Shown here: piece after piece, positions 1 through 6,424 of the stretch
Numbering within the stretch: the first letter of the stretch is position 1
Layout: every line of letters starts with the position of its first letter
Source: a virus
Taxonomy: Duplodnaviria; Heunggongvirae; Uroviricota; Caudoviricetes
IMG/VR virus record: IMGVR_UViG_2671180366_000012
Direction: 5' to 3' (one strand)
Length of the DNA: 6,424 nucleotides
Position numbers and translations under genes: made by a program
The notes under the pieces: model-generated
What the model saw: only the letters and a program-made list of their open reading frames with translations
What the model was told of the DNA's origin: nothing
Database searches by the model: none

Positions 1-29
1 AAGTTGGAGTCATTACCCTGGAGCATTTG

Positions 30-2291
30 ATGATCAAGTTATCTGAAAAAGGCGTGTTTCTCGCCAGTAATAACGAAATAATTGCCGAAGAACATTTCAC
101 CGGCGAAATTAAAAAAGAAGAAGCCAAAAAAGGCACTATTGCCTGGTCTATTCTCTCTTCGCATAATACGTCCGGAAATATGGATAAACTTAAAATTAAG
201 TTTGATTCATTAGCCTCTCACGATATTACCTTTGTTGGTATTGTACAGACCGCTAAAGCGTCCGGTATGGAACGTTTCCCGCTGCCGTATGTGCTGACCA
301 ACTGCCATAACTCACTCTGCGCCGTCGGCGGCACTATTAACGGTGATGACCATGTTTTTGGTTTATCGGCGGCCCAGCGTTATGGCGGTATTTTTGTGCC
401 TCCGCATATTGCGGTCATCCATCAATATATGCGTGAGATGATGGCAGGCGGCGGCAAAATGATCCTCGGGTCAGACAGCCACACCCGTTACGGTGCATTA
501 GGGACAATGGCAGTCGGTGAGGGCGGCGGTGAGTTGGTAAAACAGCTGCTTAATGACACCTGGGATATCGACTATCCGGGCGTGGTTGCGGTGCATCTGA
601 CCGGAAAACCTGCGCCGTATGTGGGGCCACAGGATGTGGCGCTGGCTATCATTGGCGCGGTGTTCAAAAACGGTTACGTCAAAAACAAAGTCATGGAGTT
701 CGTTGGACCGGGCGTTAGCGCGCTCTCTACCGATTTCCGTAACAGCGTTGACGTGATGACCACTGAAACGACCTGTTTAAGTTCTGTCTGGCAAACCGAT
801 GAAGAAGTCCATAACTGGCTGGCGCTGCACGGTCGCGGCCAGGATTACTGCCAGCTTAACCCTCAACCGATGGCGTACTACGATGGCTGCATCAGCGTTG
901 ATTTAAGCGCCATCAAACCAATGATTGCGCTGCCGTTCCACCCGAGCAACGTGTATGAAATCGACACACTGAACCAGAACCTGACCGACATTCTGCGTGA
1001 GATTGAAATTGAGTCCGAACGCGTGGCGCACGGTAAAGCCAAACTCTCGCTGCTGGATAAAGTGGAAAATGGTCGCCTGAAAGTGCAGCAGGGGATTATC
1101 GCGGGCTGTTCTGGCGGTAACTACGAAAACGTCATCGCGGCGGCGAATGCACTGCGCGGTCAATCCTGTGGCAATGACACCTTCTCGCTGGCAGTTTACC
1201 CGTCATCACAGCCGGTGTTTATGGATCTCGCCAAAAAAGGTGTGGTAGCAGATTTGATTGGCGCAGGCGCAATCATCAGAACCGCGTTCTGCGGCCCATG
1301 CTTTGGCGCGGGCGATACGCCAATCAACAACGGTTTGAGTATTCGCCACACCACGCGTAACTTCCCGAACCGCGAAGGCTCTAAGCCAGCTAATGGGCAG
1401 ATGTCAGCGGTGGCGTTGATGGACGCTCGTTCTATCGCTGCGACTGCGGCAAACGGTGGCTATTTAACCTCTGCCAGCGAACTTGATTGCTGGGACAACG
1501 TGCCGGAGTACGCCTTCGATGTAACGCCGTATAAAAACCGTGTTTATCAGGGCTTTGTGAAAGGGGCAACTCAGCAACCGCTGATTTACGGGCCGAACAT
1601 TAAAGACTGGCCGGAATTGGGTGCGCTGACTGACAATATCGTCCTGAAAGTGTGCTCGAAGATCCTCGACGAAGTGACCACCACCGACGAACTGATTCCT
1701 TCCGGTGAAACCTCTTCTTATCGTTCAAATCCGATTGGTCTGGCGGAGTTTACCCTGTCTCGCCGCGATCCCGGTTATGTTAGCAGAAGTAAAGCGACTG
1801 CTGAGCTGGAAAATCAGCGTCTGGCGGGGAATGTCAGCGAGCTGACAGAGGTGTTTGCGCGCATTAAGCAGATTGCTGGTCAGGAGCATATTGATCCGCT
1901 GCAAACTGAAATTGGCAGCATGGTCTATGCGGTGAAACCAGGCGATGGTTCTGCGCGTGAACAGGCGGCGAGCTGCCAGCGTGTGATTGGCGGTCTGGCG
2001 AATATTGCCGAGGAGTACGCGACTAAACGCTATCGTTCTAACGTCATCAACTGGGGGATGTTACCGCTGCAAATGGCGGAAGTACCAACCTTTGAAGTGG
2101 GGGATTACATTTACATCCCTAGCATTAAAGCGGCGCTGGATAATCCGGGTACGACGTTTAAAGGTTATGTGATCCATGAAGATGCGCCGGTAACGGAAAT
2201 TACGCTCTATATGGAAAGTCTGACTGCTGAAGAGCGCGAGATTATCAAGGCGGGTAGTTTGATTAACTTCAATAAAAACCGTCAGATGTAA
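30..2291 (+). CDS. ybhJ: Aconitase-family putative hydratase (YbhJ-like), about 753 aa
   Basis: Long uninterrupted ORF; translation matches what I recall of E. coli YbhJ. The ORF track starts at TTG 27, but ATG at 30 sits 6 nt after GGAG (20..23), so ATG 30 is the likelier start. Stop TAA at 2289..2291. Position next to ybhC and the lambda att site matches the K-12 gene order. Confidence 0.88.
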
Positions 2292-2524: not shown

Positions 2525-3808
2525 TTACTTCTTCGCCTCTGCAACCACTTTACTACCCACGCCGCGGTTATTGTATTCCCACATGCGGTTGTAGTTAGTG
2601 TCATTCAGATTGCGCTGTATTTCGTCGTTATCATCTACGCTGCCGGTATTACCCGCAAACGGACGATTAGAGATCACCGCATCGGCCCACGGTTTAGCCG
2701 TGTTAAAACCTTCGTTGATGGCGCTATCACGGATCACCACCTGACCGTTGGTATTGGCATCAACATCCAGCGAGCGGCCCAGTTGCGCCACACCATCACC
2801 GAAAGCATTGAAACGGCTGTTTACGGCGAGGAAACCGTAGTAAATGTTGGACAGCGTAGCCGGTGCAAACACATACGCTTCTTGCTGAGTACGTGAGTTC
2901 ACCACGCGGAATTCGGTGTTATCGAACACCACTGCGCCGCGACCAGAAACGATATCCACATCCCCTTCAATGTAGCTGTTGGTCACCAGCGTACGCGGCT
3001 GACGATTCGTTTCCAGACGGTTCTGCACACCGCTGTTGGTGACAAAGAAGGTGTTCTGACGACCGAGAATGTTAACGTTGTTAATCTGTACCTGGTCACC
3101 ATCAGTACGCAGTGCCACCGCCGGATGGTTACCTGCATCTACGCTATCGCCCAGCGTGTTTTCGATGGTCAGATTTTGCAGTTGCAGGCCATTGTTTTGT
3201 GACCAGAAGACCGCAGAGCAGAGAACACCGATACTGTCGCTGCGTTTGCTCTGGCAGCTATCGTACATATACCACGCTGGTTTACCTGGCATATATTTGC
3301 CGCGCGGGTTGACGTCGTGACGCCAGTCGGCAGGGCTCATGCCACCATCAAGGGAAAGCCCAATCTTCACATCAATCGGTTTTTCACCTGTACCGTACAG
3401 AGTAATTCCACCCGGAGCGGCAGGGACATATACCGTTCCCTGATACTCACCAGGCATCACGGCAATATACTGGCGCTTGTTGGTACGCTTGATAATTGCC
3501 GCATCTACCGCCGCCTGAATCGTGGTATGCGTTACACCTTGAGTGCCCGCCGGGCCGACAACAAAGTCAGGTTGCGCAGGCAGGGTAATCGGGGAAGGAT
3601 TCCACGCTGCAGCACCTGGTGTCAGGGATGCAAAATAGTGTTGAGCATCGAAATTCTGCGCTTCTTTTGCCGACAGAATCGGGCGAGAAGAGGTACCAGG
3701 CGCGGTTTGATCAGAAGGACGTTGATCGGGCGGGGTTGAGCTACAGGCGGTCAGCGTCACGCCAAAAGCCAATGCCAGCGCCAGACGGGAAACTGAAAAT
3801 GTGTTCAC
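2525..3808 (-). CDS. ybhC: Outer-membrane lipoprotein YbhC (pectin methylesterase-like fold; annotated as acyl-CoA thioesterase), 427 aa
   Basis: ORF on the - strand; N-terminus MNTFSVSRLALALAFGVTLTACSS is a lipoprotein signal peptide with lipobox LTAC. Start is GTG (complement of 3806..3808) with GGAG 6 nt upstream on the - strand. Stop TAA is complement of 2525..2527. Translation matches what I recall of E. coli YbhC. Confidence 0.88.
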   Translation of the reverse strand: MNTFSVSRLALALAFGVTLTACSSTPPDQRPSDQTAPGTSSRPILSAKEAQNFDAQHYFASLTPGAAAWNPSPITLPAQPDFVVGPAGTQGVTHTTIQAAVDAAIIKRTNKRQYIAVMPGEYQGTVYVPAAPGGITLYGTGEKPIDVKIGLSLDGGMSPADWRHDVNPRGKYMPGKPAWYMYDSCQSKRSDSIGVLCSAVFWSQNNGLQLQNLTIENTLGDSVDAGNHPAVALRTDGDQVQINNVNILGRQNTFFVTNSGVQNRLETNRQPRTLVTNSYIEGDVDIVSGRGAVVFDNTEFRVVNSRTQQEAYVFAPATLSNIYYGFLAVNSRFNAFGDGVAQLGRSLDVDANTNGQVVIRDSAINEGFNTAKPWADAVISNRPFAGNTGSVDDNDEIQRNLNDTNYNRMWEYNNRGVGSKVVAEAKK

Positions 3809-3854: not shown

Positions 3855-3869
3855 GCTTTTTTATACTAA
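3855..3869. other. att core (overlap region O) of attL, sequence GCTTTTTTATACTAA
   Basis: Exact 15-bp lambda core. Upstream flank ccgttgaagcct is the bacterial attB arm; downstream flank gttggcattataaaaaagcattgcttatcaatttgttgcaacgaacaggtcactatcagtcaaaataaaatcattatttg is the lambda P' arm as I remember it. Confidence 0.92.
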
Positions 3870-3950
3870 GTTGGCATTATAAAAAAGCATTGCTTATCAA
3901 TTTGTTGCAACGAACAGGTCACTATCAGTCAAAATAAAATCATTATTTGA
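3870..3950. promoter_or_regulatory. P' arm of attL: IHF H' site (3895..3907, tATCAAtttgTTG) and three tandem Int arm-type sites (about 3915..3947)
   Basis: IHF consensus WATCAANNNNTTR is matched at 3895..3907. Arm-type-like repeats caggtcactat / cagtcaaaat / aaatcattat lie at 3915..3947 and overlap the 3' end of int, as in lambda. Confidence 0.65.
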
Positions 3951-5013
3951 TTTCAATTTTGTCCCACTCCCTGCCTCTGTCATCACGATACTGTGATGCC
4001 ATGGTGTCCGACTTATGCCCGAGAAGATGTTGAGCAAACTTATCGCTTATCTGCTTCTCATAGAGTCTTGCAGACAAACTGCGCAACTCGTGAAAGGTAG
4101 GCGGATCCCCTTCGAAGGAAAGACCTGATGCTTTTCGTGCGCGCATAAAATACCTTGATACTGTGCCGGATGAAAGCGGTTCGCGACGAGTAGATGCAAT
4201 TATGGTTTCTCCGCCAAGAATCTCTTTGCATTTATCAAGTGTTTCCTTCATTGATATTCCGAGAGCATCAACATGCAATACTGTTGGGATGGCAATTTTT
4301 ACGCCTGTTTTGCTTTGCTCGACATAAAGATATCCATCTACGATATCAGACCACTTCATTTCGCATAAATCACCAACTCGTTGCCCGGTAACAACAGCCA
4401 GTTCCATTGCAAGTCTGAGCCAACATGGTGATGATTCTGCTGCTTGATAAATTTTCAGGTATTCGTCAGCCGTAAGTCTTGATCTCCTTACCTCTGATTT
4501 TGCTGCGCGAGTGGCAGCGACAGGGTTTGTTGTTATATGGCCTTCAGCTATTGCCTCTCGGAATGCATCGCTCAGTGTTGATCTGATTAACTTGGCTGAC
4601 GCCGCCTTGCCCTCGTCTATGTATCCATTGAGCATTGCCGCAATTTCTTTTGTGGTGATGTCTTCAAGTGGAGCATCAGGCAGACCCCTCCTTATTGCTT
4701 TAATTTTGCTCATGTAATTTATGAGTGTCTTCTGCTTGATTCCTCTGCTGGCCAGGATTTTTTCGTAGCGATCAAGCCATGAATGTAACGTAACGGAATT
4801 ATCACTGTTGATTCTCGCTGTCAGAGGCTTGTGTTTGTGTCCTGAAAATAACTCAATGTTGGCCTGTATAGCTTCAGTGATTGCGATTCGCCTGTCTCTG
4901 CCTAATCCAAACTCTTTACCCGTCCTTGGGTCCCTGTAGCAGTAATATCCATTGTTTCTTATATAAAGGTTAGGGGGTAAATCCCGGCGCTCATGACTTC
5001 GCCTTCTTCCCAT
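3943..5013 (-). CDS. int: Tyrosine recombinase, lambda integrase Int, 356 aa
   Basis: Full-length ORF on the - strand. Translation matches lambda Int as I recall it, including the C-terminal ...HLLGHKSDTMASQYRDDRGREWDKIEIK with the catalytic Tyr 15 residues from the end. An intact BamHI site (ggatcc, 4113..4118) lies inside the gene. Start ATG is complement of 5011..5013. Confidence 0.96.
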   Translation of the reverse strand: MGRRRSHERRDLPPNLYIRNNGYYCYRDPRTGKEFGLGRDRRIAITEAIQANIELFSGHKHKPLTARINSDNSVTLHSWLDRYEKILASRGIKQKTLINYMSKIKAIRRGLPDAPLEDITTKEIAAMLNGYIDEGKAASAKLIRSTLSDAFREAIAEGHITTNPVAATRAAKSEVRRSRLTADEYLKIYQAAESSPCWLRLAMELAVVTGQRVGDLCEMKWSDIVDGYLYVEQSKTGVKIAIPTVLHVDALGISMKETLDKCKEILGGETIIASTRREPLSSGTVSRYFMRARKASGLSFEGDPPTFHELRSLSARLYEKQISDKFAQHLLGHKSDTMASQYRDDRGREWDKIEIK

Positions 5014-5209
5014 TTCTGATCCTCTTCAAAAGGCTACCTGTTACTGGTCGATTTAAGTCAACCTTTACCGCTGATTCGTGGAACAGATACTCTCTTCCAT
5101 CCTTAACCGGAGGAGGGAATATCCTGCACTCGCGTACCCATCGACGAACTGTTTCAAGGCTTCTTGGGCGTCGCTGGCGTGCGTTCCACTCCTGAAGTGT
5201 CAAGTACAT
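4991..5209 (-). CDS. xis: Excisionase Xis, 72 aa
   Basis: ORF MYLTLQEWNARQRRPRSLETVRRWVRECRIFPPPVKDGREYLFHESAVKVDLNRPVTGSLLKRIRNGKKAKS matches lambda Xis. Its 3' end overlaps the int start by 23 nt (4991..5013), as in lambda. Confidence 0.95.
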   Translation of the reverse strand: MYLTLQEWNARQRRPRSLETVRRWVRECRIFPPPVKDGREYLFHESAVKVDLNRPVTGSLLKRIRNGKKAKS

Positions 5210-5221
5210 CGCAAAGTCTCC

Positions 5222-5235
5222 GCAATTACACGCAA
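5222..5235 (-). promoter_or_regulatory. cII-binding direct repeat TTGC-N6-TTGC of the int promoter pI
   Basis: The - strand reads TTGCGTGTAATTGC just upstream of the xis start codon. In lambda this is the cII recognition motif of pI, whose transcript starts inside xis so that Int is made without Xis. Confidence 0.6.
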
Positions 5236-5236
5236 G

Positions 5237-5257
5237 AAAAAACCGCCATCAGGCGGC
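5237..5257 (-). terminator. Short GC hairpin followed by a U-run on the - strand (terminator-like), overlapping the orf55 stop codon
   Basis: The - strand reads GCCGCC-UGAU-GGCGG-UUUUUU: a 5-6 bp stem from 5243..5247 pairing with 5252..5256, followed by six T (complement of A 5237..5242). The stem is short, so termination efficiency is uncertain. Confidence 0.35.
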
Positions 5258-5416
5258 TTGGTGTTCTTTCAGTTCTTCAATTCGAATATTGGTTACGTCT
5301 GCATGTGCTATCTGCGCCCATATCATCCAGTGGTTATAACAGTCGTTGATGTTCTCTGCTTCGATAACCCTGTTGAATGGCTCTCCATTCCATTCACCTG
5401 TGACTCGGAAGTGCAT
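5249..5416 (-). CDS. Small conserved lambda ORF (55 aa) between xis and the accessory region
   Basis: Not in the supplied track (below its length cutoff). The - strand reads ATG...TGA giving MHFRVTGEWNGEPFNRVIEAENINDCYNHWMIWAQIAHADVTNIRIEELKEHQAA. GGAG lies 7 nt upstream of the ATG. Same size and position as the 55-codon ORF I recall after xis in lambda. Confidence 0.65.
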   Translation of the reverse strand: MHFRVTGEWNGEPFNRVIEAENINDCYNHWMIWAQIAHADVTNIRIEELKEHQAA

Positions 5417-5427
5417 TTATCATCTCC

Positions 5428-5454
5428 ATAAAACAAAACTCGCCGTAGCGAGTT
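5428..5454 (-). terminator. Rho-independent terminator-like hairpin for leftward transcription, downstream of the 142-aa gene
   Basis: Perfect 7-bp stem aactcgc (5437..5443) / gcgagtt (5448..5454) with 4-nt loop cgta. On the - strand it is followed by UUUUGUUUU (complement of 5428..5436). Confidence 0.45.
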
Positions 5455-5499
5455 CAGATATAATTTCCACCAAAGGCAGTAGTTGCTTGATGCTAAGAA

Positions 5500-5928
5500 T
5501 TATTCAATATCTATTCCTGTAATATCTTTTATCTTTTTCCTTGCAAAGCCTTTTGCTAGTGATTTTGAAACACTCATAAGTGTACTAATTCCCTCATCCT
5601 TAAAGTTTGTTTTTATAGCTTGCCAGACATCCTTTTGACGTAAGTCAGCAATAAAATCATGCCCTCTTGCTGTCAACCTCAGTGGTACTTCGATCCAACT
5701 ATATCCAACACCTTCCCCTAACGCTTTGGACAATATATGACCGAACCCAGGTTTTCCATCAACCCTGACTATTAATTCGTAGTCACATAATAATCGCATA
5801 TGGAAAATAAAATCTTGGTCATATCTATTAAAGCCATTATCCTCTAGTTCACTAAGCATCGTGTCAGGGCCACGAGTTTTTTCGAATGCGATAAGTAGAT
5901 CTTTTAGATATTGCTGGTCTAATTTCAT
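5500..5928 (-). CDS. Hypothetical protein, 142 aa, AT-rich moron-like gene in the prophage accessory region
   Basis: ORF with strong RBS: the - strand reads GGAGG-cggca-ATG. Composition is conspicuously AT-rich compared with flanking genes. No signal peptide, transmembrane segment or family motif that I recognise. Confidence 0.75.
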   Translation of the reverse strand: MKLDQQYLKDLLIAFEKTRGPDTMLSELEDNGFNRYDQDFIFHMRLLCDYELIVRVDGKPGFGHILSKALGEGVGYSWIEVPLRLTARGHDFIADLRQKDVWQAIKTNFKDEGISTLMSVSKSLAKGFARKKIKDITGIDIE

Positions 5929-5938
5929 TGCCGCCTCC

Positions 5939-5950
5939 GTGACATGTCAC
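5939..5950. promoter_or_regulatory. 12-bp perfect palindrome GTGACATGTCAC between a -10-like TATAAA and the RBS of the 142-aa gene (candidate operator or 5' UTR hairpin)
   Basis: Perfect dyad at 5939..5950 in the 28-bp intergenic spacer. On the - strand the order is TATAAA (complement of 5956..5961), 5 nt, palindrome, GGAGG, ATG. No good -35 hexamer is apparent. Confidence 0.3.
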
Positions 5951-5956
5951 AGAGAT

Positions 5957-6295
5957 TTATATCATTAATTTTGTTTCGTGCCAGCCTTTGGTCACCCAGC
6001 ATTGTGAGTCACCATTACACGGGCATGAATTAACAGGAACTCTCTCGCCGCACTTACCGCACCGTTTTCTGCTGATCGATTTTATACGCCAGCGCACACG
6101 TGCATCATCCTGGCGGCTCAGTAACGCGATGTACTCACCAAACTCGCAAGGCGCACGCCTGAAGCGACGCGTGGCACAGTTACGCTCCAGCATTTCAATT
6201 TCCTGAGCATCAAGTACAAGCTCCAGCTTACGCATACCGGATGATGCTTGCTTGGCTCTCTGATCGGCTTTGTGCTCTGTTGCTGATTTAGCCAT
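5957..6295 (-). CDS. Hypothetical protein, 112 aa, with C-terminal cysteine cluster (possible zinc ribbon)
   Basis: ORF with AGGA 8 nt upstream of the ATG on the - strand. C-terminal region RKRCGKCGERVPVNSCPCNGDSQCW contains CxxC, CxC and a further Cys; the N-terminal half is basic and predicted helical by eye. Composition is near 50% GC, unlike the downstream 142-aa gene. Confidence 0.7.
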   Translation of the reverse strand: MAKSATEHKADQRAKQASSGMRKLELVLDAQEIEMLERNCATRRFRRAPCEFGEYIALLSRQDDARVRWRIKSISRKRCGKCGERVPVNSCPCNGDSQCWVTKGWHETKLMI

Positions 6296-6424
6296 TCTGC
6301 TTTTCCTGCATCAGGAGAAAGACAATCATGGCGGTGATGCTGCCAACTTACTGATTTAGTGTATGATGGTGTTTTTGAGGGGCTCCAGTGGCTTCCACCT
6401 TTCTCTTGTACACATATCCCAGCC

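Follow-up and report, generated by a model that had tools for sequence, protein, structure and literature searches.

Two widespread hypothetical genes in the xis-proximal slot of a lambda-like prophage: independently distributed accessory genes with predicted DNA-binding folds

Genes in lambda-like phages' exo-xis region are poorly understood and have been reported to influence the lysis–lysogeny decision. An expression-tuning role has been proposed for proteins of this region such as Ea8.5, Orf63, Orf73 and phi24B Gp05 (PMC8614690). The xis-proximal slot of the region is variable and holds predicted transcription-factor-like proteins, including a winged-helix protein of phi24B (PMC8614690). 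In lambda, the slot is occupied by ea8.5, whose product is a homeodomain-like/zinc-finger hybrid (PDB 2M7A), followed by ea22. Two other genes, ORF142 and ORF112, take this place in the E. coli prophage described here and join the poorly understood exo-xis genes. The exact proteins that they encode are each found on at least 1000 public contigs, and the analysis provides folds and family names for two very common "hypothetical" prophage genes, which are described as separate mobile modules and not as a system.

The window (the whole stretch of DNA analysed, 6,424 nucleotides) begins with the E. coli host genes ybhJ (27–2291, plus strand) and ybhC (2525–3808, minus strand), and the left end of a lambda-type prophage lies beyond ybhC. 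The lambda att core, GCTTTTTTATACTAA (3855–3869, aligned to lambda 27724–27738), forms the left prophage junction, and identity to lambda starts here; the prophage is integrated at attB-lambda, adjoining ybhC. The minus strand then carries int (3943–5013; 356 aa, with DNA ~99% identical to lambda int), xis (4991–5209; 72 aa, aligned to lambda and matching Pfam Exc PF07825 with E 3.9e-41) and orf55 (5249–5416; 55 codons, a homologue of lambdap35 in phrog_676). A GC-rich, terminator-like hairpin with a T-run on the same strand (5436–5455) is common to lambda and is the last conserved element before a mosaic breakpoint. In an alignment to the lambda reference, window positions 3855–5465 correspond to lambda 27724–29330 with ~99% identity, and homology ends abruptly at ~5466; the initial annotation had recognised the lambda layout from the att core through int and xis to the 55-codon ORF, and the alignment confirms it. 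Beyond the breakpoint, where lambda continues with ea8.5 and ea22, the window instead carries ORF142 (5500–5928, minus strand; 36% GC, WP_000762731.1) and ORF112 (5957–6295, minus strand; 50% GC, pI 9.5, WP_001129736.1), which are separated by a 28-nt spacer and co-oriented with int and xis. The two ORFs of 142 and 112 aa between 5500 and 6295 had been placed with exact coordinates and on the correct strand, and both are intact genes. The lambda alignment, BLASTP and hhalign agree with the earlier statement that they differ from ea8.5 and ea22, and the lambda alignment and the literature bear out their assignment to a variable xis-proximal accessory slot, without characterised function.

ORF142 starts with ATG, has a GGAGG Shine–Dalgarno sequence 6 nt upstream, and has 99 homologues (46–96% identity) whose named source organisms are all Enterobacterales and among which its length and its N-terminus, MK[IL][DN]Q, are conserved. 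For ORF112, which likewise starts with ATG, a word-indexed search returned 394 matches, again with conserved N-terminus and length. By the Nei–Gojobori method, ORF142 has pN of 0.17–0.39 against pS of 0.71–0.87, with synonymous sites saturated, and ORF112 has dN/dS of 0.16–0.27 against its homologues from phiV10, TL-2011b, Salmonella and ZF40. Judged from these sequence comparisons, ORF142 and ORF112 are real, intact genes under purifying selection, beyond chance ORFs.

Both proteins belong to catalogued families. ORF142 matches Pfam DUF2513 (PF10711) with 42.5 bits, above the curated gathering cut-off of 29.6, with residues 2–115 on model positions 1–100 of 100, and PF10711 is present in all 99 homologues except two fragments. 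It also matches phrog_585, a PHROG without known function, and is an ordinary member of both families, from which it shows no difference; RefSeq names the exact protein "DUF2513 domain-containing protein". ORF112 matches phrog_536 (E 7.3e-48; residues 1–111 on profile positions 2–114 of 115), whose label "transcriptional regulator" is a predicted annotation. Within PHROG 536, it is 62–87% identical to phiV10 p55, epsilon15 gp49 and ZF40 gp22. A Pfam search found no match for ORF112, and on public contigs the protein carries the name "hypothetical protein". Its family is small, since an exhaustive search of 1.84 billion representatives yielded only 104 representative clusters at 50% identity. 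The literature search found no functional account of DUF2513/PF10711, WP_000762731.1, WP_001129736.1, the two PHROG families or epsilon15 gp49.

In the AlphaFold2 monomer model of ORF142, which is confident (mean pLDDT 93, pTM 0.83; 37 homologues in the alignment), three helices and a beta-hairpin wing come first and three C-terminal helices after them. ORF142 is thus modelled as a MarR/PadR-like winged helix-turn-helix protein with three additional helices at its C-terminus. Although this fold is common to the MarR, PadR and HxlR regulators, ORF142 shares only 9–21% sequence identity with them, matches none of the Pfam MarR, PadR and HxlR models, and reaches a whole-chain Foldseek TM-score of only ~0.4. 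Its wing, unlike theirs, holds a variable insertion (residues 62–80), and its three C-terminal helices are unlike the MarR dimerisation helices. The sole other Pfam match of ORF142 is a sub-threshold one to wHTH-PRTase_assc, an NCBIfam search gave no match, and searches of PDB sequences, whether by single sequence or by profile, returned nothing meaningful for ORF142 or ORF112. Kinship of ORF142 with the phi24B exo-xis proteins Gp05 (a winged-helix protein) and vb_24B_2c was rejected, the matches being not significant. The pI of ORF142 is 6.3, near neutral, which is atypical for a strongly DNA-binding protein and counts against its reading as a DNA-binding regulator.

The alignment of ORF112 relatives shows a basic N-terminus (RKaaQRaR) and a conserved core (ELxL...E..mL...C..RRpgr.pY...EY..lLIrqD). 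Cys79 and Cys82 are invariant, Cys99 is nearly invariant, and a fourth cysteine is found at position 91/93. The structural model (pLDDT 88) has a helix at residues 5–19, an extended segment at 20–29, helices at 30–43 and 52–74, a knuckle and a final helix. The protein is predicted to consist of an N-terminal basic helix, a core that is tentatively ribbon-helix-helix (RHH)-like, and a C-terminal four-cysteine zinc ribbon. In the CopG/Arc/MetJ RHH proteins the elements follow the order tentatively read in the ORF112 model, from extended segment to helix A to helix B, but ORF112 possesses the N-terminal basic helix and the zinc ribbon in addition and, unlike RHH antitoxins, has no partner toxin. 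No RHH sequence model reached threshold with ORF112: single family members gave RHH_5 (E 0.013), RepB-RCR_reg (0.028) and RHH_1 (0.071), all below threshold, and NCBIfam YbfE (NF008671) scored a sub-threshold 16.8 bits with a cut-off of 62. In hhalign, CopG aligned with E 0.046 in the expected strand/helix-A register. No description of a combination of RHH-like unit and zinc ribbon of this type was found.

The closest parallel in the same genomic slot is Ea8.5, which like ORF112 is a small protein that joins a DNA-binding-like helical unit to a zinc-binding C-terminus (PMC8614690). Homology between the two was nonetheless rejected, as BLASTP produced no alignment and hhalign gave a probability of 0.2%; in addition, the N-terminal fold is homeodomain-like in Ea8.5, whereas that of ORF112 is predicted to be RHH-like. 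ORF112 and Ea8.5 are analogues by position, not homologues.

The ORF112 allele in the window has Phe45, Arg46, Cys50 and Ser60, where Pro, Gly, Tyr and Ile stand in the common allele and in most relatives, with Tyr50 in at least 90%. These are point substitutions without a frameshift, and phage Chlobot has the identical allele; because they deviate at conserved positions, the activity of the protein may be altered. The Chlobot record (PP925838; L001 6558–7036, L002 6929–7036) annotates ORF112 merely as a 46-aa C-terminal fragment, beside an overlapping "UmuD-like protein" in another frame. In RefSeq genomes, the intact 112-aa ORF112 follows a truncated "DNA repair protein" pseudogene, the mark of a recombination junction immediately upstream of ORF112.

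The two genes are distributed independently. The two-gene segment was matched in 674 of 5426 complete E. coli genomes, and both genes were present in 142 of the 674. Partial matches, as seen in 60 sampled rows, were mostly to ORF112 alone, at ~91% DNA identity and adjoining ASCH-domain or NinX genes, and the inspected cases with the DUF2513 gene alone were IS1-mediated truncations of the same prophage. Relatives of ORF112 occur in ~12% of complete E. coli genomes and also in epsilon15-like, lambdoid and P2-like phages. Among phage records, ORF112 is present in 55, ORF142 in 2, and both in 1, that of Chlobot. A set of 74 viral contigs from IMG/VR, which covers close ORF112 relatives only, carries ORF112 throughout; downstream of it, 36 contigs have a 224-aa protein, 23 a 75-aa protein and 12 ORF142, so that both genes are found on 12 contigs. 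By its position in TL-2011b, the 224-aa neighbour is most likely the small terminase subunit. ORF142 takes the downstream position only beside ORF112 alleles that match the window's with an identity of at least 97%. For the DUF2513 relatives, neighbours were clustered by taking two ORFs on each side at 42 loci from different species; no common neighbour family emerged, and the largest neighbour cluster had 2 members. The DUF2513 genes of Serratia and Klebsiella lie near int, in the nin region, or between the lysis genes and terminase, among unrelated neighbours, and the Serratia neighbours are coiled-coil proteins that look Ea22-like by eye and are not relatives of ORF112.

ORF142 and ORF112 also differ in GC content, as given above. 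From 5964, which lies at the 3' end of the coding sequence of ORF112, the DNA is homologous to that of phiV10 and TL-2011b, and therefore a module boundary is placed in the 28-nt spacer. In terms of sequence and distribution, ORF142 and ORF112 are two independently acquired single-gene modules and not a functional cassette, and their pairing is one successful near-identical E. coli haplotype, not a conserved system. The locus is an instance of ordinary lambdoid mosaicism, with two widespread hypothetical proteins whose predicted DNA-binding folds are standard ones.

ORF112 homologues are found at several places in other phages. In epsilon15-like phages (phiV10, TL-2011b, L092 and 35 other IMG/VR loci), the homologue is the last early gene and immediately precedes the small terminase gene, from which 41 nt separate it in L092 and 121 nt in TL-2011b. 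The slot directly upstream of the small terminase is a frequent home of late-gene regulators. In lambdoid Salmonella prophages and in ZF40, the homologue belongs to the nin region and comes before NinB and Q. The P2-like Yersinia phage vB_YenM_42.18 (L019 3594–6760) has a relative with 37% identity between the replication gene gpA and an 873-aa SMC-like ORF, a location that we take to correspond to the old/tin variable region of P2. A prophage segment running from orf55 through the DUF2513 gene and ORF112 to orf60a is present on plasmid pECO-cbb3 (NZ_CP026206, 4783–8224), and 14 plasmid places on large E. coli plasmids carry the orf55 to orf60a segment, interrupted by IS110, IS5 and IS26.

A 20-bp imperfect palindrome with the core GTGACATGTCAC lies between ORF142 and ORF112 (5935–5954). 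In RNA form, it can fold into a 9-bp hairpin that takes in the GGAGG Shine–Dalgarno sequence of ORF142 (−10.8 kcal/mol; z −1.25, not significant). Ahead of a Serratia DUF2513 gene (71% identical; L006 3975–3995) stands a similar sequence, GTGACATCTCACGGAGG, and the palindrome belongs to the ORF142 module. No regulatory role is claimed for it, as the hairpin is statistically unremarkable and the palindrome is conserved in close relatives only. In strain FMU073332, an IS1-mediated truncation junction lies inside the palindrome.

The last part of the window is an IS1 terminal inverted repeat (6335–6424, with its start at ~6333–6335) that matches the IS1 ends of thousands of records and had been missed in the initial annotation. 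This IS1 end, ~38 nt upstream of the start codon of ORF112, truncates the prophage and replaces the rest of the pL operon. The junction was placed by a three-way alignment of the window, an intact prophage and the IS1 junction of E. coli YJ6; the same junction also occurs in ETEC6. The last ~27 nt of the window (from ~6398) diverge from the IS1 of YJ6 and ETEC6 and are unmatched in complete E. coli genomes; they could represent a different IS1 variant or a solo end. In the intact prophage of E. coli AMSHJX01, the region upstream of ORF112 holds the truncated "DNA repair protein" fragment, a 204-aa ORF and an ea22-like fragment, and further upstream come a TraR/DksA gene, orf63, orf60a, exo, bet, gam, kil and cIII.

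No sigma-70-like promoter was found on the minus strand of the window or of the intact prophage locus, and an Rfam search gave no match across the ORF142/ORF112 region. After ORF142 comes the terminator-like hairpin that lambda also has, and the two genes have no terminator of their own. Their co-orientation with int and xis, the lack of a promoter of their own and the shared hairpin after ORF142 place ORF142 and ORF112 in the pL delayed-early operon. This position fits a role in infection or induction better than one in the resting lysogen. The copies in the window have lost their native promoter because IS1 replaced everything upstream.

As two single-gene accessory modules in the xis-proximal variable part of a lambda-like exo-xis region, ORF142 and ORF112 would, in an intact phage, be made as delayed-early proteins from pL after infection or induction. 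The reading with the best support is that they would then bind DNA (or RNA) and so adjust phage or host gene expression during early development. From the predicted folds and the operon position, and by analogy with other exo-xis genes, we infer nucleic-acid binding and a regulatory role; that the two proteins are early-expressed nucleic-acid-binding regulators has, in our estimate, about an even chance of being correct. Proteins other than transcription factors also have winged-helix and RHH folds; antitoxins, partition proteins and anti-defence regulators are examples. It seems rather improbable that, among the single-gene accessory factors of phages, one or both proteins form a new functional class. 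Under such a reading, ORF112 could control late or packaging genes or counter host defence, an idea drawn from its place immediately before the small terminase gene of epsilon15-like phages, and the DUF2513 protein could be a host-takeover or anti-defence factor. If either gene did regulate phage development or counter host immunity, the finding would apply to many prophages at once, but such a role is no likelier here than for any uncharacterised early gene.

Where the copies in the window are concerned, both genes are probably poorly expressed or silent passengers, since IS1 removed pL and the sequences upstream. That they are inert relics of a decaying prophage without current function in this genome is possible, if doubtful. 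The replacement of everything upstream of ORF112, including pL and N, would be in keeping with it, as would the independent IS1 truncations known for the same prophage and the substitutions of the ORF112 allele at conserved positions; yet both ORFs are intact, the isolated phage Chlobot carries identical alleles, transcription could read out of IS1, and the argument concerns expression in this strain and not the activity of the proteins. A silent state here is plausible, and it is compatible with the regulator reading. Exclusion, defence or anti-defence cargo, directed against competing phages or host immunity, is an unlikely role for one or both genes. The slot is a swappable accessory one, and both genes are known from other accessory positions (the nin region, the lysis–terminase interval, and after gpA in the P2-like Yersinia phage); ORF142 is AT-rich, as are many recently acquired genes, and early production from pL would suit anti-defence. 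Against this, ORF142, ORF112 and orf55 matched none of the 5027 models of PADLOC-DB v2 at E ≤ 1, both structural models look like simple DNA-binding modules and show neither an enzymatic nor a membrane domain, there is no promoter of their own for expression in a lysogen, and there are no conserved partner genes. A literature search on lambdoid defence hotspots turned up nothing on ORF142 or ORF112. The initial annotation had proposed a two-gene cassette of no known family as a candidate for an exclusion, defence or anti-defence function. What holds of it is that uncharacterised accessory genes occupy the slot it indicated. The families, in contrast, are catalogued (DUF2513 and phrog_585 for ORF142, phrog_536 for ORF112, with both proteins in RefSeq), the cassette gives way to a pairing confined to one near-identical haplotype of two genes with unlike GC content, and nothing points to defence, as there is no PADLOC match, the predicted folds are ordinary DNA-binding ones, and neither a promoter nor a terminator of their own is present.

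Two further readings concern ORF112 in particular. It could, like Orf73 from this region, be a TraR/DksA-like factor whose zinc finger binds RNA polymerase, given that positions 49–110 of its family profile align with TraR residues 6–66 and that a CxxCG...P motif is common to ORF112 and phi24B Orf73. We consider this very improbable: the match has an E-value of 0.38 and an hhalign probability of 5.5%, neither significant, and a true TraR/DksA protein is already encoded by the intact prophage. The hallmarks listed for TraR/DksA C4 zinc fingers (PMC8614690) are absent: on inspection of the family alignment, the aligned position lacks the acidic N-terminal DxxDxA motif, and the equivalent helix is internal, after the RHH-like unit. 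A TraR- or Orf73-like assignment was therefore not retained, the CxxCG motif being the sole common feature. Least probable of all is a type II toxin–antitoxin pair, with ORF112 as RHH antitoxin upstream of ORF142 as toxin. The best structural matches of ORF112 are indeed the RHH antitoxins TacA, ParD, MazE and FitA, and the gene order and 28-nt spacing resemble a toxin–antitoxin operon, but gene distribution largely refutes the pair. Most E. coli genomes with ORF112, and 54 of the 55 phage records, lack ORF142, which follows ORF112 only in the haplotype of at least 97% identity among the 74 viral contigs, DUF2513 relatives have no conserved neighbour, and the DUF2513 gene survives alone after IS1 deletion of ORF112. 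The modelled fold of ORF142 is, moreover, a winged helix and no toxin fold.

On the host side of the window, the ybhJ–ybhC intergenic region (2315–2509) contains tandem REP/BIME-type repeats with 65-nt and 35-nt units at a spacing of 92–93 nt. Positions 2386–2456 match Rfam naRNA4 (RF02564) with 60.7 bits, barely over the gathering score, and the repeats give rise to spurious ORFs with repeated peptide sequences.
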